A DNA stretch of 64,000 nt from Eledone cirrhosa (Eukaryota): NCBI GenBank assembly GCA_964016885.1, contig OZ024746.1:47802001-47866000 (forward strand), read 5' to 3'. This document shows positions 1 to 54,643 of this stretch, piece by piece. Both the position numbers and the translations under genes were made by a program. Every line of letters starts with the position of its first letter. Within the stretch, counting starts at the first letter, position 1. The notes under the pieces were generated by a model, which was not told the DNA's origin, searched no databases, and saw only the letters and a program-made list of their open reading frames with translations.

Positions 1-886
1 AATTGAACTCTGCCTCCACGACCCTTCCAGGAATAAGCACCTATGAGCTTAGTTGGTCTCGCTTGGGGATCCAGTCGGATGATTTGGAGATATTTGCTTC
101 TGACTCTTGTGCTTGAGGACTCTGCCCCTATGATACTCCCATGAATAAGGGAGTAAAGAAGAAGAAGAATAAGAAGAAGAAGACACAAGTCCAACACATT
201 TGGGGGTGGTTGAACTTAGACTGTAAAGAACTGCAACTAAATGCCGTAAATCCCCTGGTCCGACGCTCTAATAATTTTGCCAATCCACCTCTAGAACAGT
301 CGAGCTAATGGATGTTATGTAACCATTGTACCCGTAGCCTACCTCTGGGTCTCCTGTCGGTTGGTTTTGAAGATAGCGAGTTTCACTTTTACACCTACTT
401 CCCTTCTAATTACCGAATGCTGAAGTTGGCACATTACTACACAAGCTCTTGAAATTCATGCACTTAATTAATCACTCTTGAACATGTCCCGAGATACTTC
501 TACTTCTCCAGCTGCTTCAGTGTAACTCCATTCACGTGTAGAGTGCACTACGTAGGTTTCCATGGGCGGACAAGTGTCTCAGTCTTTGTGACACTGATTT
601 TCATTTCTATCGCGCAACACTCGGAAGTAAACCTATCAAGTGCATGTCTGAATGTCTGAGATTATTTATATATATATATATATATCGATATATGGTTGAC
701 GGCTGAGAGAAAGGAATACTATATAATATTAACTATATATATATATATATATATATATCAAGCCTTAATATCTCTTCGTTGTACAGTGTCGCTTTGTTAT
801 TTTTGTTTATATATATAACAGGCTGAATGAGTTGGGATGTATAACCCAACGAAACTTAAGTTACCCGTATATGTCACTGTTGTAAC

Positions 887-977
<91 letters not shown>

Positions 978-1714
978 TGAGCGACCACGTAGAGGCTCCC
1001 TTATTGGCTCGTGTTCTTAGTGTTCAAGTGTTTATTATATCGGTTGATAGTGCTGTTGATGATGATGCTAATTTATATTGGGATTGGTATTGTCTGGCCG
1101 ATGGTATACAACCACTGGCATGCACCAGTCAGCCAGCTTGTCCTTTCTCATTTGAGATAGTGGGGTGTGATTTTAAGTAAACTTGTCTGCATATTTCTAA
1201 CATGTCAAATAAGCACATTGCGACTATCACCCCCCGTAGTCATTGTTGTTCTTGATATTTTGCTATGTAACATTAACCTTTTTATACCAACCTACTCGAG
1301 ACCTTTTATAGTTATATGATATATAAATGCTGATGTTTTGAATTGTTTATTGTTTTTATTTTGAAACCTTCTGTCACAATTTTATATAAACACTTTATGT
1401 TTGACATATACCATTAAGCCGTCCGTTATCGATCCACTGTGAAATTAAGCTTGAGTTTGCCGTTGTTGGCTTATCTAGCATGATTGCAGCTCTATGTGTT
1501 CTATGCCGCAAAACATTTTGGCTGACGCTATACTGATACTGACAACTGACCGCCCTAAACTCTATCTTAATGAAAAGGTCATTTATTTAACAAAATCCTT
1601 CAAAATGTGTGACTATTTACAAAATTAAGAGAAAACCAGGAGGTATTATTCAATTAAAATATGATCACAGAAAGTTTAAATCATTGTCAACTTGTATTCT
1701 GTTTTCTATCCAAG

Positions 1715-1937
1715 GCATTGGTCTATCAATCTTCGTGATTTCCACCTATGTAGCTTTCTACTACAATACGATTATAGCATGGTCGGTTTATTACCTGTTT
1801 TCATCATTTAACGCCGAAGTACCTTGGCTAAGTTGTAATAACACCTGGAACACTGATAATTGTACGACATTCGAACAACGACGGAACCAATCATTACCAG
1901 CGAATATGTCCACTGCTTCAGCACAAGAATTCTTTGA
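1715..1937 (+). CDS. SLC6A4: SERT-like SLC6 transporter, first exon in window (TM3 + EL2); gene is 5'-truncated by the window edge
   Basis: AAG acceptor, GTAAGT donor at 1938; (G)IGLSIFVISTYVAFYYNTIIAWSVYYLFSSFNAEVPWLSCNNTWNTDNC...SAQEFFE matches SLC6 TM3 YYNTI motif, EL2 Cys pair and N-glycosylation sequons. Confidence 0.93.
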
Positions 1938-2716: not shown

Positions 2717-2749
<33 letters not shown>

Positions 2750-2751
<2 letters not shown>

Positions 2752-2845
2752 ACTAAAAAGTCACACTCGTTCAGCGCATCGGTAGGGGTTCTCCTACATG
2801 AATATAAAGTAGTGGCCGTACTCGAAAACGAGTTGGCAGCCACCA

Positions 2846-2876
<31 letters not shown>

Positions 2877-3011
2877 GTATATGTGTATGTATGTGTATAT
2901 ATATATATGTATATATGTATGTGTATGTATATATATGTATGTATGTATGTGTATATATGTATATGTGTGTATGTATGTGTATGTGTATGTATGTATGTAT
3001 GTATGTATATG

Positions 3012-3042
<31 letters not shown>

Positions 3043-3725
3043 GTATATATATATATATATGTATATATGTGTGTATGTATGTATGTATATATGTATGTGT
3101 ATATATGTGTATATATGTCAAGTCACCAGTTGGTGCTACTGGTAACATGTATCCCAGTACAACCTGTTTCATGGTCGGGTCGTTGACGACTAAACTGGCA
3201 ACCCCACCAAGGTTTCTTGGTGAGGAGGGTGACTTTGGACATCCTGCAGGACTAAAAACAAAACCTGTCAAAGGGCAAAGGAGCTATTAAGAGTCAATGG
3301 CCATCCAAAATCACCGGGAGAGATGACCCCTTAGCCTTTGTCAAGGCAGAATTCTAGGAGAAGGAAAACTCTGATATAATACCTGCAACCCTGATGGTAT
3401 CCAATGATGTTGACTTGTTCTTCTTTTTGGTAAATATCATCTTGGTTAAGAGAGTGGGACTGGCTTTGTGCAGTGCCTTTGCTCACTATAAAAGCTTCAC
3501 GGCACAGGCATTGCTTTATATCTGGAGATCTCTCTGCACTTGTCGTCACATGGTACCAAAGGCAAAGCACTATGTGTCAATAATTGTCACAAGTGTAGTG
3601 TTTGTACCAGAGTTTTCAAGTCGCTGGCTGGACTAAAAAGTCACACTCGTTCAGCGCATCGGTAGGGGTTCTCCTACATGAATATAAAGTAGTGGCCGTA
3701 CTCGAAAACGAGTTGGCAGCCACCA

Positions 3726-3761
<36 letters not shown>

Positions 3762-3879
3762 TGTATGTGTATGTGTGTATATATGTATGTATGTGTATAT
3801 ATATATATGTATATGTGTATGTGTATGTATATATATGTATGTATGTATGTGTATATATGTATATGTGTGTATGTATGTG

Positions 3880-3911
<32 letters not shown>

Positions 3912-4610
3912 TATGTATATGTATGTATTTATGTATGTGTATATATATATATATGTATATGTGTATGTATGTATGTATATATGTATGTGTATATATGTGT
4001 ATATATGTCAAGTCACCAGTTGGTGCTACTGGTAACATGTATCCCAGTACAACCTGTTTCATGGTCGGGTCGTTGGCGACTAAACTGGCAACCCCACCAA
4101 GGTTTCTTGGTGAGGAGGGTGACTTTGGACATCCTGCAGGACTAAAAACAAAACCTGTCAAAGGGCAAAGGAGCTATTAAGAGTCAATGGCCATCCAAAA
4201 TCACCGGGAGAGATGACCCCTTAGCCTTTGTCAAGGCAGAATTCTAGGAGAAGGAAAACTCTGATATAATACCTGCAACCCTGATGGTATCCAATGATGT
4301 TGACTTGTTCTTCTTTTTGGTAAATATCATCTTGGTTAAGAGAGTGGGACTGGCTTTGTGCAGTGCCTTTGCTCACTATAAAAGCTTCACGGCACAGGCA
4401 TTGCTTTATATCTGGAGATCTCTCTGCACTTGTCGTCATATGGTACCATGGGCCCAGCACTATGTGTCAATAATTGTCACAGGTGTAGTGTTTGTACCAG
4501 AGTTTTCAAGTCGCTGGCTGGACTAAAAAGTCACTCGTTCAGCGCATCGGTAGGGGTTCTCCTACATGGATATAAAGTAGTGGCCGTACTCGAAAACAAG
4601 TTGGCAGCCA

Positions 4611-4614
<4 letters not shown>
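2750..4614. repeat. Tandem duplication, about 2.1 copies of an 880-890 bp unit containing a (TA/TG) microsatellite
   Basis: GGACTAAAAAGTCAC.. restarts at 2750, 3630 and 4520; near-identical paired ORFs in the track. Confidence 0.92.
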
Positions 4615-4642
<28 letters not shown>

Positions 4643-7664: not shown

Positions 7665-7803
7665 ATATAATATTCTGGAACTACAGTATTCTAAAGGTAT
7701 CGACGATGTTGGTGGAGTGAAGTGGAAGATGTGTTTATGTCTGGTGGGAGTTTTTAGTATTGTCTACTTTAGTTTATGGAAAGGAATCAAAAGCTCTGGC
7801 AAA
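7665..7803 (+). CDS. SLC6A4: SERT-like exon 2 in window (EL2 end, TM4)
   Basis: CAG acceptor, GTAAGT donor, phase matches previous exon; [46 protein letters not shown]. Confidence 0.95.
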
Positions 7804-16765: not shown

Positions 16766-16900
16766 GTTGTATGGGTAACGGCCACCTTACCTTATATTGT
16801 TCTATTGGTGCTGCTGGTACGAGGGTGTTCTCTTCCTGGATCTTATGAGGGCATTATTTACTATCTCAAACCCAACTGGAGTATGCTTTTAAAAGCAAAT
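16766..16900 (+). CDS. SLC6A4: SERT-like exon 3 in window (TM5); absent from ORF track
   Basis: TAG acceptor, GTAAGT donor, 135 bp phase 0-0; [45 protein letters not shown]. Confidence 0.95.
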
Positions 16901-17976: not shown

Positions 17977-18081
<105 letters not shown>

Positions 18082-18520: not shown

Positions 18521-18529
<9 letters not shown>

Positions 18530-19357
18530 TAAACAAATAATGAATAAAACAATGAAATAGTTCCTTATATTAAACAAAAAAAGTTCATTATTTAACGATC
18601 GTTTCTAGGATATATATGTGTTAGAATTGGCATGCATATTCAACAGATCTATGTACAAAATTATACAAAATTATACAAACTATCAAGATTAAATATACAT
18701 ACCAACACATATATACGCCGTCTTCAGAAATAATGAAATATATTTATTGATAATAACAACAATTCAAAATTTCAGGTCCGTTTGGGAACAAAATTGACCA
18801 ATGAAAATACAAAAGGTTTTATGCAGTTCGGTGTGTGTATATACATGTAACTACCCTTACACATATTTTACAAAAATGTATGCTCAACATGTATACGCAT
18901 ACCAAAAGGATGGATGCAAATACAAAATTTCAAGGTTAATGTCTCTGTAAGTTTATAATGCACAGATAAGATGCGTATAGACACATAAATATGAAATAAG
19001 TGTATACACATATTCTCATACTCACACATATCCGTACAATCACACACACGCGCGCGTATATGCATAAACATACACATAATTACGAACATACAAACACACA
19101 CACACCCCCACTCACATATATATATGTGGATATAATATCATAAGCACATGGATATTAATTCACTCACATAAACACTGTCACACACATTTAGATCAAGATA
19201 CAGAAATTAGGTGGGAGGGGGGGAGAGGTCAGTATTCAACGGTTTGGGCAGACTGCTTATTATAGATGTATCTATAAACTAAGAAAATAAAAAATAAAAA
19301 ATAAAAATTAAAAAGGAAAGAAAAGAAAAAGAAAAAAGAAAAAAGAAATATATCAAG

Positions 19358-19405
<48 letters not shown>

Positions 19406-19533
19406 AATATATATATATATATATATATACATAAACACATACATACATATACACACATCCACACTTAGAACATACATACACACACATATATAAACATATA
19501 CATATACACACATACACACATATACACACATAC

Positions 19534-19582
<49 letters not shown>

Positions 19583-19881
19583 TACACATATAATCACACA
19601 TACTATATAGACACACATATATATACACACATACACGCACATATACATACACATACATACTTATATACATACAGATATACACATACATACCTATATATAG
19701 ACGCAAATACATACAGATATACATACATACATACACACAAATACTTACGCATCCATATATCGGTATATACATACAAACACCACTACACTCTCACACAACT
19801 CAGACATACAAAGAAAAAGGTATATACCTATATACATATACATATACAAATAGAAATACATATACATATATATATATATAT

Positions 19882-19920
<39 letters not shown>

Positions 19921-20108
19921 CACATATACACACATATACATACATACACATACATACATGTACACACACATACATATACATACATACACACATACATACA
20001 TATATAGTCATACACACACATACACCTACACGAACATACACATACACATATATAAAGATATATACACACACACACACACATACACACACACACATATATA
20101 TAAAATAA

Positions 20109-20149
<41 letters not shown>

Positions 20150-20476
20150 CATATACATACACACATACATAGACATATATGTACATACATACACATACAT
20201 ACATACATACACACACATATATACATATATATACACACATAGACACATACATATATACACACACAACATACATACACACACATATATACTCATACATAGA
20301 ATTAGATATATATTCATACATACATACGCACTTACATATACTCATATATACAAATACATACGCATCCATATATGCGTATATACATACAAACACCACTACA
20401 CCCTCACACAACTCAGACATACAAAGAAAAAGGCATATACATATACATATATACACGCATTAATAGAGATATATAT

Positions 20477-20513
<37 letters not shown>

Positions 20514-20735
20514 CACTTATATATATATACATCCACACACACATACAACCATAAACACACATACAAAACATACAAACACACACATACACATATATATACA
20601 CATACATATATATACACACACACACAAAAAACAGACATACATATATATATTTTTTTACACATATATATACACATATATATACATATACACACCCTCACAT
20701 ATACACACATACACATAAGTTATATTATAATAATA

Positions 20736-20792
<57 letters not shown>

Positions 20793-21041
20793 CGAATATA
20801 GACATATATACACACATAGATATATATATATATATATATACATATACACACACACACACATACACTCACATATATATGTGCGCACACGTACATATATACA
20901 CATACACACATATACACGTAAACACATACATGTGCATACATGCACACACACACATATACCCACATAGATACGAAGATAGACATATAAATAGAGAGACATA
21001 CATATATATACACACACATATATACATACATACATACACAC

Positions 21042-21955: not shown

Positions 21956-22199
21956 TACATACACATACATATACATACATACATATACATATTTTTTCAA
22001 AAATTGCAAAGAATATATTAACTAGGTATATATCAAAAACACATCCCATTCTATGATTACATGACATTCTGCAATCCGTCTGTATAAGGATACTAATTTT
22101 AAGCCGATTAAATTAAATTTTTAGGTTGACTAAATTTAAAACCAAATTATAAATATATTTCTAAAATGTATATTATGTGTGTATATATGTCTATATTCG

Positions 22200-22246
<47 letters not shown>

Positions 22247-22468
22247 TATTATTATAATATAACTTATGTGTATGTGTGTATATGTGAGGGTGTGTATATG
22301 TATATATATGTGTATATATATGTGTAAAAAAATATATATATGTATGTCTGTTTTTTGTGTGTGTGTGTATATATATGTATGTGTATATATATGTGTATGT
22401 GTGTGTTTGTATGTTTTGTATGTGTGTTTATGGTTGTATGTGTGTGTGGATGTATATATATATAAGTG

Positions 22469-22499
<31 letters not shown>

Positions 22500-22830
22500 G
22501 TGTATATATATCTCTATTAATGCGTGTATATATGTATATGTATATGCCTTTTTCTTTGTATGTCTGAGTTGTGTGAGGGTGTAGTGGTGTTTGTATGTAT
22601 ATACGCATATATGGATGCGTATGTATTTGTATATATGAGTATATGTAAGTGCGTATGTATGTATGAATATATATCTAATTCTATGTATGAGTATATATGT
22701 GTGTGTATGTATGTTGTGTGTGTATATATGTATGTGTCTATGTGTGTATATATATGTATATATGTGTGTGTATGTATGTATGTATGTGTATGTATGTACA
22801 TATATGTCTATGTATGTGTGTATGTATATG

Positions 22831-22875
<45 letters not shown>

Positions 22876-23067
22876 TTATTTTATATATATGTGTGTGTGT
22901 GTATGTGTGTGTGTGTGTATATATATCTTTATATATGTGTATGTGTATGTTCGTGTAGGTGTATGTGTGTGTATGACTATATATGTATGTATGTATGTGT
23001 GTATGTATGTATATGTATGTGTGTGTACATGTATGTATGTGTATGTATGTATATGTGTGTATATGTG

Positions 23068-23104
<37 letters not shown>

Positions 23105-23411
23105 ATATATATATATATATATATGTATATGTATTTCTATTTGTATATGTATATGTATATAGGTATATACCTTTTTCTTTGTATGTCTGAGTTGTGTGAG
23201 AGTGTAGTGGTGTTTGTATGTATATACCGATATATGGATGCGTAAGTATTTGTGTGTATGTATGTATGTATGTATATCTGTATGTATTTGCGTCTATATA
23301 TAGGTATGTATGTGTATATCTGTATGTATATAAGTATGTATGTGTATGTATATGTGCGTGTATGTGTGTATATATATGTGTGTCTATATAGTATGTGTGA
23401 TTATATGTGTA

Positions 23412-23458
<47 letters not shown>

Positions 23459-23572
23459 GTATGTGTGTATATGTGTGTATGTGTGTATATGTATATGTTT
23501 ATATATGTTCTAAGTGTGGATGTGTGTATATGTATGTATGTGTTTATGTATATATATATATATATATATATT

Positions 23573-23609
<37 letters not shown>

Positions 23610-24585
23610 TTTCTTGATATATTTCTTTTTTCTTTTTTCTTTTTCTTTTCTTTCCTTTTTAATTTTTATTTTTTATTTTTTATTTTCTTAGTTTATAGAT
23701 ACATCTATAATAAGCAGTCTGCCCAAACCGTTGAATACTGACCTCTCCCCCCCTCCCACCTAATTTCTGTATCTTGATCTAAATGTGTGTGACAGTGTTT
23801 ATGTGAGTGAATTAATATCCATGTGCTTATGATATTATATCCACATATATATATGTGAGTGGGGGTGTGTGTGTGTTTGTATGTTCGTAATTATGTGTAT
23901 GTTTATGCATATACGCGCGCGTGTGTGTGATTGTACGGATATGTGTGAGTATGAGAATATGTGTATACACTTATTTCATATTTATGTGTCTATACGCATC
24001 TTATCTGTGCATTATAAACTTACAGAGACATTAACCTTGAAATTTTGTATTTGCATCCATCCTTTTGGTATGCGTATACATGTTGAGCATACATTTTTGT
24101 AAAATATGTGTAAGGGTAGTTACATGTATATACACACACCGAACTGCATAAAACCTTTTGTATTTTCATTGGTCAATTTTGTTCCCAAACGGACCTGAAA
24201 TTTTGAATTGTTGTTATTATCAATAAATATATTTCATTATTTCTGAAGACGGCGTATATATGTGTTGGTATGTATATTTAATCTTGATAGTTTGTATAAT
24301 TTTGTATAATTTTGTACATAGATCTGTTGAATATGCATGCCAATTCTAACACATATATATCCTAGAAACGATCGTTAAATAATGAACTTTTTTTGTTTAA
24401 TATAAGGAACTATTTCATTGTTTTATTCATTATTTGTTTAATATTTTATCTTGACTCTGTATACCGTTTATCTTTCACCGAAAGTGATTTTTCATTACAT
24501 CTCTTCTTTCCATGATATCCGGAATACATTGAGTTCTTCATACGGATTGGACACTACCGTAAACTCTTGGTAGATTTATCTACAT
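18521..24585. mobile_element. Large fold-back element: arms 18521-20818 and 22174-24449, 1.35-kb spacer, one-sided tail 24450-24585
   Basis: Arms are reverse complements except for microsatellite length; mirrored ORFs 18868-19101(-) and 23869-24102(+) are identical. Confidence 0.92.
24233..24386 (+). ncRNA. Type I hammerhead with extended stem II (family D); mirror copy 18584-18737(-), others 37866-38015(+) and 60886-61023(-)
   Basis: Stem I TTCATTATTT/AAATAATGAA, CTGAAGA, about 115-nt stem II region, GAAA, palindromic ACGATCGT, GUU site (GUA in the 60.9-kb copy). Confidence 0.75.
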
Positions 24586-29512: not shown

Positions 29513-29637
29513 AGATGCACTTATAACAAGTGCAGTTAACTGTTGCACTAGCTTTTTTGCCGGATTTGCCGTTTTCTCTGTCCTTGGTTACATGGCCCAT
29601 GTGCACAAGAAAAGCGTTGCAGACGTATCACGTGAAG
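29513..29637 (+). CDS. SLC6A4: SERT-like exon 5 in window (TM7)
   Basis: CAG acceptor, GTAAG donor; [41 protein letters not shown] with N368/S372 equivalents. Confidence 0.95.
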
Positions 29638-31005: not shown

Positions 31006-31229
31006 CAGAGTTAAAAAATATTTTTTCGCGCACCCTCTCTAACCGTTCCCTTTCAAATAAACGCGTTACAATGATTGACAAGCGCTACTACATCTCTTTC
31101 CCTCTTTCTCTCCCTCTCATTCGCACACACACACTGTTACTTTCCCCTTTCTAACGAGGCCGATGTTTTACACGAAATATGCAACAGCTTTCATATAACA
31201 TCTTATTTGTCGATATTTTCTTGTTGCAG

Positions 31230-31342
31230 ATGTTGGTTTAATCTTTATTGTCTACCCAGAGGCTATTGCTACACTGAAAGGCTCTGTTTTTTGGGCTATA
31301 ATTTTCTTTGTTATGCTAACTACTCTAGGACTTGATACCACG
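31230..31342 (+). CDS. SLC6A4: SERT-like exon 6 in window (EL4, TM8)
   Basis: CAG acceptor, GTATGT donor; [38 protein letters not shown]. Confidence 0.95.
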
Positions 31343-31502
31343 GTATGTATCAACGCGCAACATGTATTTTCTTTGTATATTTAGAATTATTAAGGTTTAC
31401 TTTACATGCGTTTCTATATTTATATTGAGATATCTATGGATAGAGTTTGCTTGGCTACCCACTTATTTCCGTGAAATCCCTCTTACATTTGAAATCTGAC
31501 AA

Positions 31503-31580
<78 letters not shown>

Positions 31581-32077
31581 ACATTTACACACACATATCT
31601 ATCTATTTATCTCTCTACCACTCTCTCTCTCTATATATATATATACACACACACGTATACACACATATATATATATGTATAAATATATATGTATGTGTGT
31701 GTGTATGTGTATATATATATATATATATGGAACTCCATTACGTTTGATCGCCACCTCTACACTGGAGAGATACAGCTGACGTGGAGTGCTCTTACCTGCT
31801 TAAACCCGTTTATGAACGAGAAGTCAGTACGCTACTCTTATGGATAAACACCACACCAACTAGCAACAATATATATATATATATATCGTATTTCTCGTTC
31901 ATTCAATGTATCCAGCATGCAAAAGAAAGTTATTGTTTATGTATAAATCGTTAAAGATTAAAAAGAACCATTGTATTTTAAGTATTTTTATTTCTCTCTC
32001 GATAAAATGCTGAAAATTATGAGTAAACGTAAACCACTCTTATGACCATAAAAATGATAAATTATTTTCTGTTTCAG

Positions 32078-32206
32078 TTCGGTGGTTTGGAGGCAATATG
32101 TACCGGTATTCTAGATGAATTTCCTAAAGTCAAAAGACACCGAGAGTTGTTTGTTGCCTTCCTTATGTTATATTGTTTGTTAGGTGGCCTTGCAACAACA
32201 ACTTAT
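32078..32206 (+). CDS. SLC6A4: SERT-like exon 7 in window (TM8 end, TM9)
   Basis: CAG acceptor, GTAAGT donor; FGGLEAICTGILDEFPKVKRHRELFVAFLMLYCLLGGLATTTY. Confidence 0.95.
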
Positions 32207-38970: not shown

Positions 38971-39089
38971 TTGTGTGTGAGAGAGTCCCGGGTTCAATCG
39001 GAGGTTGCTTGTTCTATCTATTTGTTTTACTAGTTTTGTTCTTGTGTCTCTGTATGTCTTTATCTTATCCTGAGTTACTAGTTATGATG

Positions 39090-39610
39090 CTATTACACTC
39101 ATTTTTTCTGTTTAGTTTTGGTTGGAGTTCGTTAAAGTTTATCGCTTCTGTAATATGTCGGAACACTGCGCCTGTTTGTGGATATGATTTTTATCTCGAT
39201 GTTCTCTAGTGTGCGCCCATATTCCATTCTGCCATGTTGGTGGAGTACTGATGAATCTTTCCCATCTCGGACTTCTTGCCAGAGTTCGTTTCTCCTATGC
39301 TACAGGCTGTCTCACCTATGTATGTCGCGTTCCTATTTCTACACTGACCCTCCGTACATCTTATGCTATATACTACTTTCCGAGTTTTACAGTTAATTTG
39401 TGGGCTTAATTTGCAGACTATATATTTTTTATCAGTGCAGGCGCTTTTCTCAAAAGGGTTTGTTCTACTAATTAGGGCTTGTATACGAATACGTGTTCTG
39501 TCTACTATATTAATATTTAATTTTAGTTTGTCTAGAGCCTTTCTAAATCTGTAAGCTAATTCGTCTCTGGGGTGCATTGACGAACATTACACTCTGGTAT
39601 TTACTGTTGT
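39090..39610 (-). pseudogene. Frameshifted Penelope-like GIY-YIG endonuclease fragment
   Basis: NCKTRKVVYSIRCTEGQCRNRNATYIGETA; clearly homologous to the 52.7-kb ORF. Confidence 0.85.
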
Positions 39611-42624: not shown

Positions 42625-42724
42625 GGTGGCGTATACGTGGTCCAGCTATTAGATACTTATGGCGCCCCAATATCTATATTGTTTGTTGTCTTTCTGGAAT
42701 CCGTAGCAGTTTCTTGGATTTATG
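42625..42724 (+). CDS. SLC6A4: SERT-like exon 8 in window (TM10)
   Basis: Polypyrimidine tract + CAG acceptor, GTGAAT donor; [33 protein letters not shown]. Confidence 0.94.
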
Positions 42725-46037: not shown

Positions 46038-46138
46038 GTGTGAACAGATTTAGTGACGATATCGAATCCATGATTGGCACCCGCCCAGGTCTCTTTTGGC
46101 GAGGCTGTTGGGCAGTTGTCAGCCCAGTCTTCTTGTTG
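46038..46138 (+). CDS. SLC6A4: SERT-like exon 9 in window (TM11); absent from ORF track
   Basis: TAG acceptor, GTAAGT donor; [34 protein letters not shown]. Confidence 0.94.
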
Positions 46139-46536: not shown

Positions 46537-46704
46537 ATGCTATTTACTTTATCAATAATGAATGACAGTGGCCCAAGATACGGAGATTATGAATACCCAC
46601 CGTGGTCTATTGGGATTGGTTGGGTTATCGTGTGTTCTTCTTTAATATGCATTCCGCTGTATATGATATATAAATTCATCGCATTGGACGGTTCGGTGTG
46701 TGAG
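46537..46704 (+). CDS. SLC6A4: SERT-like exon 10 in window (TM12)
   Basis: TAG acceptor, GTAAGT donor; MLFTLSIMNDSGPRYGDYEYPPWSIGIGWVIVCSSLICIPLYMIYKFIALDGSVCE. Confidence 0.94.
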
Positions 46705-47656: not shown

Positions 47657-47737
47657 AGACTTAGGAAAATGATTCAACCTTCGGAGGTGCCAAAGCACGT
47701 ACAACGGCAACAAGAGGCTGAACCGATCTTTCTATGA
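47657..47737 (+). CDS. SLC6A4: SERT-like terminal coding exon
   Basis: TTTTGCAG acceptor; RLRKMIQPSEVPKHVQRQQEAEPIFL-TGA; starts with the RI/RL ER-export motif like the human last exon. Confidence 0.88.
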   Translation, partial: RLRKMIQPSEVPKHVQRQQEAEPIFL

Positions 47738-51909: not shown

Positions 51910-52529
51910 TTATTTGAAAAAAAGAAGAACAGAGACGAATTTATATATTCCACTTGTTTGTTGTCTTGTGTCACTCTCATTATATACATTTCAAAGGCAT
52001 TAAAATGTCCTTATGTAATAACTATTTAATACGCTGTCGTCAGACACGTTCTGAGAATGTGAACAATGCTTTTGCTTTTGGCTTTTGAAATACCCGCTGT
52101 TGAAGGAATGTTGTTCATTCGCAATATAGTTGACATTGCTTACATTTTCAGCACCTATCCGACGACTACACATTATATGAAATGTATATAACCGGCGTGA
52201 TGTAAGACAATAAAGAGCAGTAGAACATGTAAAATCGTTTCTCTTCTTACTTAATATTGATAATCCGACTGATACCATATACGTAATACATTTGACGTGG
52301 GGTGTTTATGCTTGATTACACCTAAGTTAGTTGATTGCTTGGATCAACCAACACAGATTATTGAAGCAAATATATATATATATATTGTTATACTTTGGGA
52401 GGGTCATGTTGCCAATAAGAAACACACGCACCATGCTTTCACTTCAATTTATTATATATTTATAAATTTATAAATTTATAAATTTCTGGTTGGTTGGTTG
52501 GTTCCACAACCAGATAGTTGTTTATATAT

Positions 52530-52574
52530 AGTCATATTTCTTTCGTCACACACTCTGTGACCTCTTCAGTGACT
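52530..52574 (-). ncRNA. Minimal hammerhead in pLTR (mirror copy 53451-53495 on +)
   Basis: AGTCA CTGAAGA G GTCACA-GAGTG-TGTGAC GAAA GAAA TA TGACT; the plus copy ends GAAC TG (G at the cleavage position). Confidence 0.65.
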
Positions 52575-52658
52575 GGGGATTACTTTCTTTGTTTCTGTGC
52601 CTCTCCTTTGTTCTGTCCTACGCCATTTTGTTTCTGTGTGTGTGTTGTGTGCTCAGTC

Positions 52659-53250
52659 TAGTAACAAGGCTAATAGAATAAACTCATGGTATGATAGCAA
52701 TAAATACCAGAGTGTAATGTTCATCAATACAACCCCTAGAGGTGAATTAGCTTACAAATTTAGAAGGGCCCTAAATAAACATAAACTCAATATTAAGATA
52801 GTAGAAAGACCAGGTACCTCCGTAAAAACACTTATTAGCAAGACATACCCTTTTCAAAGACCCTCATGTATAGATAAGAAATGTATAACCTGTAAAATAA
52901 GCCCCCATATTAACTGTAAAACTAGAAATGTAGTGTATAGCATAAGATGTACTGAAGGACAATGTAGAGACAAAAATATAGTGTACATAGGTGAGACAGC
53001 TCGTAGTGTAGGGGAACGGATAAATGAACACTGGCGAGACCTTCAAGATAATAAACAATCATCTGTACTCTACCAACATGCTAAGATAGAACACAAGGGT
53101 AAATTAGAGAAAATAGAAATAAAAATAGAATCTACACACAGAAAAGACGCAATGTTTAGACAAATTACAGAGGCAATAAACATAAAAGAATTACAACCAA
53201 AATTAAATAGAAAATATGAGTGGAACAGCAACATCACAACTTACAATTAA
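52659..53250 (+). CDS. Penelope-like ORF C-terminus: Cys-rich linker and GIY-YIG endonuclease (5'-truncated, frame intact)
   Basis: CIDKKCITC..NVVYSIRC..YIGETARSVGERINEH..RQITEAINI..PKLN. Confidence 0.88.
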
Positions 53251-54643
53251 GGACAAAATGAAAACACACACACACATAGAACAAACAACCAACCAGTAAC
53301 ATGTAAATAAACAAATAAATAAATGAACATAAACACACACAGACACCCGGATGTGGCGCATGCGCAGACTGAGCACACAACACACACACAGAAACAAAAT
53401 GGCGTAGGACAGAACAAAGGAGAAGCACAGAAACAAAGAAAGGAATCCCCAGTCACTGAAGAGGTCACAGAGTGTGTGACGAAAGAACTGTGACTATATA
53501 TAAACAACTATCTGGTTGTGGAACCAACCAACCAACCAGAAATTTATAAATTTATAAATTTATAAATATATAATAAATTGAAGTGAAAGCAACTGGTGCG
53601 TGTGTTTCTTATTGGCAACATGACCCTCCCAAAGTATAACAATATCTGTTTCAACACACGATTTCAGATAAAGAATCTTGCTAAACAAATTCGGAAACGA
53701 AATATATATATATATATATATATATCAACGGATGGTAGATTAAGGAATTAATGGAATACACTATATATTCTTTTGTTTTTTTAATATTTTAACAGAAATG
53801 AGCACTTTGGTGTGTGGGGTGTGTGCGTGTTTTATGGTTACACTTATAGCAGTGTATTTTTTAAAATTCCAATATCACCCTAAACTGGTCCTTTTCTCGC
53901 GGTCAAATTAGCAAAAATAAATTGTTACAGAAGCGCGAAACAGCATTTTAGATGGTTTTCATAGTTATACAATAAATTTATTGAAAAAAGACTTATAAAA
54001 AAATTGAAACATCAATGTAAGTATGCCGAAAAAAAGAAATAAAAAAATGTAAGCGAAACAAAAAAAAAAAATAATAATAAAAACAGCAAGAAAAAAAAAG
54101 ACCGAAAGTCTATATTGAATATGTTTCTATTGCTTTGAATATTTTTTAATATCTTGAGACAAATATAAAAAAGATATTTAAACAAAAAGTAATTAATGAT
54201 GGGGAAATATTTCGTAAAATATTTTGTAAAAATTTTGTCACATTTGTAAACTTAAAAAGTCGACAGATTTTTCACCATTTTTATTTTTTTTATTTTGTAT
54301 AATTCGTCGATTTTACTTCTTATATAGTATTTGTTATTATATAGTATTGTCTTGTTATTATATTTTTTCTGGTTTTTGAACTTTATAATTTTGATTTTAT
54401 ATTGTTGTATGATTGAAGAGGATCCAAAATAATGCAGGTTTACGTCTTGCCAAAAAGAAGGAAAAACAAAACTTAAAAAAAATATGGACAAATCAAAATG
54501 GCTCCTTGCATTTTCCCACTTGTTACCTTGTCAGTTTAAAAAGTTGTTATACTTACTATTATCAAACACCGGGGTCGATGTAATCGACTGCCCTCCATTT
54601 TGGCCTTGCGCCTATATTAGAAACAATTGTTATTATAATTACA

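Follow-up and report, generated by a model that had tools for sequence, protein, structure and literature searches.

The window, by which we mean the whole stretch of 64,000 nucleotides analysed here, carries part of an SLC6A4 (serotonin transporter, SERT) gene that encodes threonine at the position of serine 438 in human SERT. With fair confidence, we regard this gene as the octopod ortholog of the mollusc copy Slc6a4-(1), in which Thr438 is older than the split between chitons and shelled molluscs, and whose product likely still mediates Na+/Cl--coupled serotonin uptake but likely binds inhibitors of the citalopram type less strongly than Ser-type SERTs do.

The gene model comprises 11 coding exons within positions 1715-47737, which join into a frame of 469 residues with no internal stop, and canonical splice sites were present throughout (AG acceptors at 11/11 exons and GT donors at 10/10 introns). 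Since no exon motif was found upstream of 1715 in window positions 1-1700, the part of the gene encoding the N-terminus to TM2 probably precedes the window. The codons GAT ACC ACG occupy positions 31334..31342 of the (+) strand and are followed by the donor GTATGT, while the next exon, at 32078, opens with FGGLE. This confirms the description of the codons and of the exon junction in an earlier note on this DNA. The intron at this junction is precisely spliced out in contigs of the runs X9 and X17, which we guess to be RNA of other, related organisms, and it should be noted that such run contigs are unable to show editing or expression level.

Table. Coding exons of the partial SLC6A4 gene, the intron that follows the EL4b-TM8 exon, and the codons around position 438 (human SERT numbering).
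Feature	Position in window	Strand	Remarks
Exon, TM3-EL2	1715..1937	+	first exon in the window
Exon, EL2-TM4	7665..7803	+	
Exon, TM5-EL3	16766..16900	+	
Exon, TM6	17977..18080	+	Q332, F335, S336 and F341 kept
Exon, TM7-EL4a	29513..29637	+	N368, S372; clade-typical Arg at about 399; ends with base 1 of the Asp402 codon
Exon, EL4b-TM8	31230..31342	+	opens with bases 2-3 of the Asp402 codon and Val403; ends with GLDTT
GAT codon	31334..31336	+	Asp437, Na2 ligand, conserved
ACC codon	31337..31339	+	Thr438; Na2 ligand, wall of the central S1 site
ACG codon	31340..31342	+	Thr439, same in human SERT; final codon ahead of the phase-0 donor
Intron, GT..AG	31343..32077	+	735 bases; absent from contigs of two runs
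Exon, TM8 end to TM9	32078..32206	+	FGGLE...
Exon, TM10	42625..42724	+	clade-typical Gln at K490; Asp at E493
Exon, IL5-TM11	46038..46138	+	
Exon, EL6-TM12	46537..46704	+	
Exon, last coding	47657..47737	+	...EPIFL-stop

Several repeats were observed in and around the gene. The intron after the TM6 exon contains an inverted duplication of 2.3 kb with 97% identity (18521-20846 / 22148-24449), which may be real or a feature of the assembly, and the first intron contains an overlapping direct duplication of about 1 kb with 95% identity (2749-4642). Two related repeats on opposite strands (39035-39606 / 52698-53285) are 73% identical and include ORF pieces, which we take to resemble the endonuclease end of Penelope-like retroelements; a Pfam search with the ORF at 39035-39606 gave no match. 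An inverted repeat of 280 bases (52382-52659 / 53366-53645) is located near the 52698-53285 repeat. Rfam returned 0 matches, and no Pfam match was obtained for two intronic ORFs.

The assignment of the ACC codon to position 438 follows from a HMMER alignment in which the GLDTTF motif of the ortholog P0001 (92% identical) sits on GLDSTF of human SERT. This alignment and the placement of the gene in trees bear out the view that a SERT-family gene has Thr at human S438. The protein model of the window shares 93% identity with the O. bimaculoides protein XP_052824425, 92% with the O. sinensis protein and 91% with the Argonauta protein, versus 57% with the second octopus SERT, whose motif is GLDST. 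In a careful tree of 34 rows, for which residue 438 was masked and three NET/DAT-like outgroups were included, the 12 Thr rows formed one clade (support 100/98) with the chiton branching first, and its named members were molluscs only. The Ser-type mollusc copies formed a separate clade (100/99), and the SERTs were split from the NET/DAT-like outgroups at 100/100. A quick tree of 58 rows, 21 of them Thr rows, was concordant (SH-aLRT 99). Placing the window gene and the Ser-type octopus copy P0013 in one group was rejected by the AU test (p = 2.2e-14).

Two mollusc SLC6A4 copies have been described by Edsinger & Dolen (10.1101/301192), copy (1) as a mollusc-only clade with a TM6 that is 95.7% identical to the human one, and copy (2) as more divergent overall with a TM8 that is 91% identical. 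Because the make-up of the Thr clade and the TM6 and TM8 sequences fit the former, we infer that the window gene corresponds to the mollusc-only Slc6a4-(1) as its octopod ortholog; this label was matched by these features and not by accession. Like O. bimaculoides Slc6a4-(1), with XP_052824425 as the point of comparison, it belongs to a mollusc-only clade and has a TM6 nearly identical to that of human SERT. It is, however, the ortholog from another octopod, and the main text of Edsinger & Dolen (10.1101/301192) is silent on residue 438 and EL4.

Searches with protein sequences and models agree with a transporter of this family. The ortholog protein P0130 from O. bimaculoides, taken in place of the joined protein of the window, scored 654 bits against PF00209 (cut-off 27), and its AF2 model (pLDDT 87.4) has the 12-TM LeuT fold. 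It superimposes on human SERT with 1.6-1.9 A rmsd (1.6 A for 6vrh), and its TM-score versus SERT, NET and DAT is about 0.85, NET entries coming first by E-value. For full-length P0001, the best PDB sequence match was human SERT with 735 bits versus 715 for NET. PDB searches with the EL4b-TM8 exon alone, as well as the fold search, placed NET first or level with SERT. Exon-only and fold searches do not discriminate among monoamine transporters, and as the full-length search and the tree put the gene in SERT, the exon-only ranking is uninformative. Moreover, the SERT-type TM8 residues T439, F440 and L443 are present in the window (TTFGGL).

The second mollusc SERT paralog, of the Slc6a4-(2) type (P0013, P0137, P0024, P0068 and P0052), also belongs to the SERT clade and is found in the same taxa, for example Liolophura, Haliotis, Dreissena and Octopus. 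Unlike the Thr clade, it combines Ser438 with GPGL in all sampled sequences (20/20). The N-terminus before the first conserved Trp measures 19-41 residues in Thr-type copies and is mostly long in Ser-type copies, and a hydrophobic C-terminal tail of the form P-x-aromatic-L is present in most Thr-type copies, the tail of the Ser-type copies being varied. These terminal contrasts suggest that trafficking or regulation may differ between the two types. The second octopus paralog (P0013, P0137, P0138) has QICFS in TM6 versus human QIFFS. Residues 333-336 are stated to be 100% identical in both octopus copies (10.1101/301192), and the gene models or the numbering may therefore differ.

We examined 184 database homologues, which represent the best matches of each search and include isoforms and near-duplicates, and found Thr at position 438 in 32, Ser in 149 and no coverage in 3. 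The 25 of the 32 Thr438 carriers that have a species name are all molluscs, namely a chiton (Liolophura), gastropods (Patella, Lottia, Haliotis, Gigantopelta, Littorina, Babylonia, Aplysia, Lymnaea, Bulinus), bivalves (Solemya, Mizuhopecten, Mytilus, Tegillarca, Dreissena, Mya, Ruditapes) and, among the cephalopods, octopods. The brachiopod, nemertean, annelid, flatworm, arthropod and deuterostome SERTs of the set have Ser438. This distribution is consistent with a replacement of Ser438 by Thr before the chiton/shelled-mollusc split. Close to this position in TM8, Thr is found at human I432 (MLTTLGLD, window 31319-31321) only in the window, the octopod proteins and the P0002 cluster of the cephalopod branch; as far as the 32 Thr rows tell, this is a cephalopod-specific change near residue 438.

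The Na2 site of human SERT is formed by G94, V97, L434, D437 and S438 (PMC5942844), which supports the earlier note's description of S438 as a Na2 ligand. The same site also binds K+, and the S438A mutant is without K+ sensitivity (PMC11067047). The Na2, Na1 and Cl ligands G94, V97, L434, D437, A96, N101, S336, N368, Y121, Q332 and S372 are kept in every covered row of the 32 Thr rows, and so are R104, Y176, F335, F341, T439 and L443 in the first alignment. Within the window, S336, N368, Q332, S372, L434 and D437 are kept and S438 is replaced by Thr, and the TM1/TM2 ligands are kept in the orthologs. The window does not include TM1; in the Thr clade, every homologue that covers D98 keeps it, P0001 among them. 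Because D98, Y176, F341 and T439 are kept together with the remaining Na1, Na2 and Cl ligands, Na/Cl-coupled 5-HT uptake by the Thr-type mollusc SERT is very probable. No transport or binding measurements on the Thr-type mollusc paralog, 5-HT uptake assays included, were found in the literature searched.

Human SERT with the engineered S438T mutation provides the closest pharmacological comparison. This mutant transports 5-HT with a similar or slightly higher KM, and its affinity for S-citalopram is 625-fold down, a loss the earlier note had put forward and which is documented in PMC8379219 (the figure legend and the primers read S438T, one sentence reads S438A). Human SERT and its S438T mutant have the same fold as the Thr-clade proteins and share with them D98, Y176, F335, F341, D437, T439, L443 and the Na1 and Cl ligands. 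They differ in that Thr438 is native in the window gene and that the ortholog P0001 has D402, V403 and Q490 as well as the S1/S2 differences F95, S169, V172, T494 and S556. It is also background knowledge that S438T lowers tricyclic affinity. The steric reading, which reportedly goes back to Andersen et al. 2009, places the extra methyl group of S438T against the dimethylamine of the drug. In the mollusc protein, the Thr hydroxyl would retain Na2 coordination and the extra methyl of Thr438 would crowd the amine-binding corner of S1, as in the engineered mutant. By analogy, Thr438 probably does contribute to lower affinity for citalopram-type drugs, although its contribution may be masked or altered because the background differs at F95, S169, V172, T494 and S556.

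The alternative that survives best, which we nonetheless consider unlikely, is that the gene is the same ancient paralog but that Thr438 is near neutral, inhibitor sensitivity being set by other residues and Thr being a clade marker. Ser/Thr exchange is indeed common among amino-acid SLC6 transporters, and in a pairwise mapping Thr was found at 438 in 28 of the 107 representatives without the mapped D98 aspartate. The GlyT2 (SLC6A5) ortholog P0161, for example, has GLDTMF with D437 kept, a natural GLDT at Na2 as in the Thr clade; GlyT2, however, carries amino acids, is only a distant relative and has Gly at the D98 position. By contrast, Thr was found in 0 of the 43 D98-bearing representatives and in no named non-mollusc SERT. 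Thr438 therefore appears compatible with the SLC6 fold, yet special to the mollusc clade among monoamine transporters. Other S1 differences exist in the clade, and the potency of vilazodone is not lowered by S438T but unchanged or increased (PMC8379219, PMC12627810), and both points favour this alternative. Against near neutrality speak the absence of reversion within the Thr clade (32/32) and the identity of the direct S1 neighbours D98, Y176, F335, F341 and T439 to those of human SERT.

Besides Thr438, the favoured reading of an ancient SERT paralog with weakened citalopram-type binding has to accommodate a second set of changes, in EL4 and the vestibule. The EL4 segment, split over 29631-29637 and 31230-31234, reads RE-DVGL, the EL4b-TM8 exon thus contributing to DVGL where GPGL or GPSL is usual. 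When 24 Thr-clade rows were compared with 104 Ser rows (P0015, P0028 and P0071, which are non-SERT or corrupt, being omitted), D402 was found in 23/24 Thr-clade rows versus Gly402 in 103/104 Ser rows. V403, R399 and Q490 were each present in 23/24 Thr-clade rows, I406 in 24/24 versus 1/104 Ser rows, and I486 in 21/24, the window having Val486. The chiton keeps GPGL together with T438, and T438 therefore precedes the EL4 change on the tree, a conclusion that rests on one chiton sequence. In the Thr-type copy of shelled molluscs and cephalopods, G402D/P403V is fixed, and this later change of R399/D402/V403, together with Q490, would give the conchiferan copy an extracellular vestibule of different shape.

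Mutagenesis has mapped G402, P403, A486, V489 and K490 to the vestibular allosteric site (PMC7325972), and Gly at 402 is stated there for all monoamine transporters; Asp at 402 is nonetheless seen in 4/43 of our D98-bearing representatives, a count from a pairwise mapping that is gap-sensitive. Human G402H shows no detectable 5-HT uptake and no allosteric S-citalopram binding (PMC7325972, citing Plenge 2012), and L406E and A486E have lowered uptake and allosteric potency (PMC7083837). As G402H abolishes uptake, the D402/V403 change in EL4 is arguably more unusual than S438T, and function of a D402 protein requires compensation.

These data also bear on an improbable alternative, namely that the function has shifted to another amine substrate, or that gating or ion coupling has changed, T438 and D402/V403 being parts of the shift. 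The clade-diagnostic changes are indeed concentrated at Na2 and the vestibule (399, 402, 403, 406, 486, 490), S438 serves K+ antiport in human SERT (PMC11067047), and the loss of uptake in G402H would fit such a shift. On the other hand, T439, F440 and L443 are SERT-like and not DAT/NET-like, the gene nests inside SERT in the tree, and Asp402 is shared with the four other monoamine-type representatives. The expression of the two mussel genes can be read both ways: in mussel larvae, the SERT-like genes are found in non-overlapping sets of cells, but all of these cells are tph-positive, and OAT and iDAT are encoded by separate genes in bivalves (10.64898/2026.08.17.745212). Since both genes are expressed in tph cells, two working serotonin transporters fit these observations.

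The Aplysia protein P0019, which is named 'serotonin transporter', is of the Thr type and has an Ile in TM10 at the position mapped to hNET L469 (numbering inferred). This Ile of 'aSERT' was noted when aSERT was proposed as a chi-conotoxin target (PMC11568388), and the target is therefore probably the Thr-type paralog.

The suggestion of the earlier note that the gene is a divergent, cephalopod-specific SERT paralog has next to no probability left. The window is octopod-like by homology and the Thr at I432 is confined to the cephalopod branch, but alignment with mollusc SLC6A4 paralogs, while upholding Thr438, did not uphold its restriction to cephalopods: it is shared by chiton, gastropod and bivalve orthologs (Liolophura, Patella, Haliotis, Aplysia, Lymnaea, Solemya, Mytilus, Mizuhopecten, Dreissena, Ruditapes and others), so that Thr is fixed from chiton to cephalopods. 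Furthermore, the long branch in the trees belongs to the Ser-type octopus copy and not to the window gene. The spread of Thr438 across molluscs and both trees thus refute a cephalopod-specific divergent copy. Equally untenable is a sequencing error, a rare allele or RNA editing that restores Ser, for although ACC is one base off the Ser codons TCC and AGC and the direct read support is a single contig (run X1, spanning 31169-31492 at depth 3 with 0 differences, and possibly from the assembly's own sample), error is ruled out by this match and, more decisively, by the presence of GLDTT in the O. sinensis, O. bimaculoides and Argonauta proteins (3/3), such conservation of Thr438 in all close orthologs also refuting the allele and editing variants, A-to-I editing of ACC gives Ala and not Ser by the genetic code, and editing of cephalopod SLC6A4 is reported to be negligible (10.1101/714394, where the paralog is not specified).

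Neither the gene nor its fold nor the mollusc duplication is new, and Thr438 is an ancient, clade-wide variant of a known transporter. The surprise is limited, because the gene and its duplication are published and natural S1 differences are common in invertebrate SERTs, an example being Met172, which is present in most arthropod SERT rows of our homologue alignment. We found no comment on a mollusc Thr438 or Asp402 in the searched literature, including the available portions of PMC8913902 and PMC12737102; this literature covers few subscription papers and excludes the alignment figures and supplements of Edsinger & Dolen and the earlier Mytilus SERT paper.

A more far-reaching idea, which we put forward tentatively and would rate below even chances, is that all sampled molluscs possess a SERT copy natively substituted at both positions at which citalopram action has been disabled in the laboratory, with S438T throughout the clade and a charged residue replacing G402 in conchiferans. 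Such a copy would be functional but largely insensitive to citalopram-type and tricyclic drugs, and would operate beside the Ser-type copy in different serotonergic cells. If this is true, the mollusc copy shows that SERT can cycle without the EL4 glycine that is thought to be required. The native D402/V403 loop offers a natural test of the role of EL4 in gating. Aquatic pollution with SSRIs is common, mollusc neurobiology uses these drugs routinely, and extrapolation from human SERT presumes that their target is conserved. Should one mollusc SERT resist some antidepressants, effects on snails, mussels and octopuses would depend on the drug and on the paralog expressed in each cell. Such a dependence may be relevant to the mixed results covered by the review PMC12737102 and to the interpretation of the octopus MDMA study.
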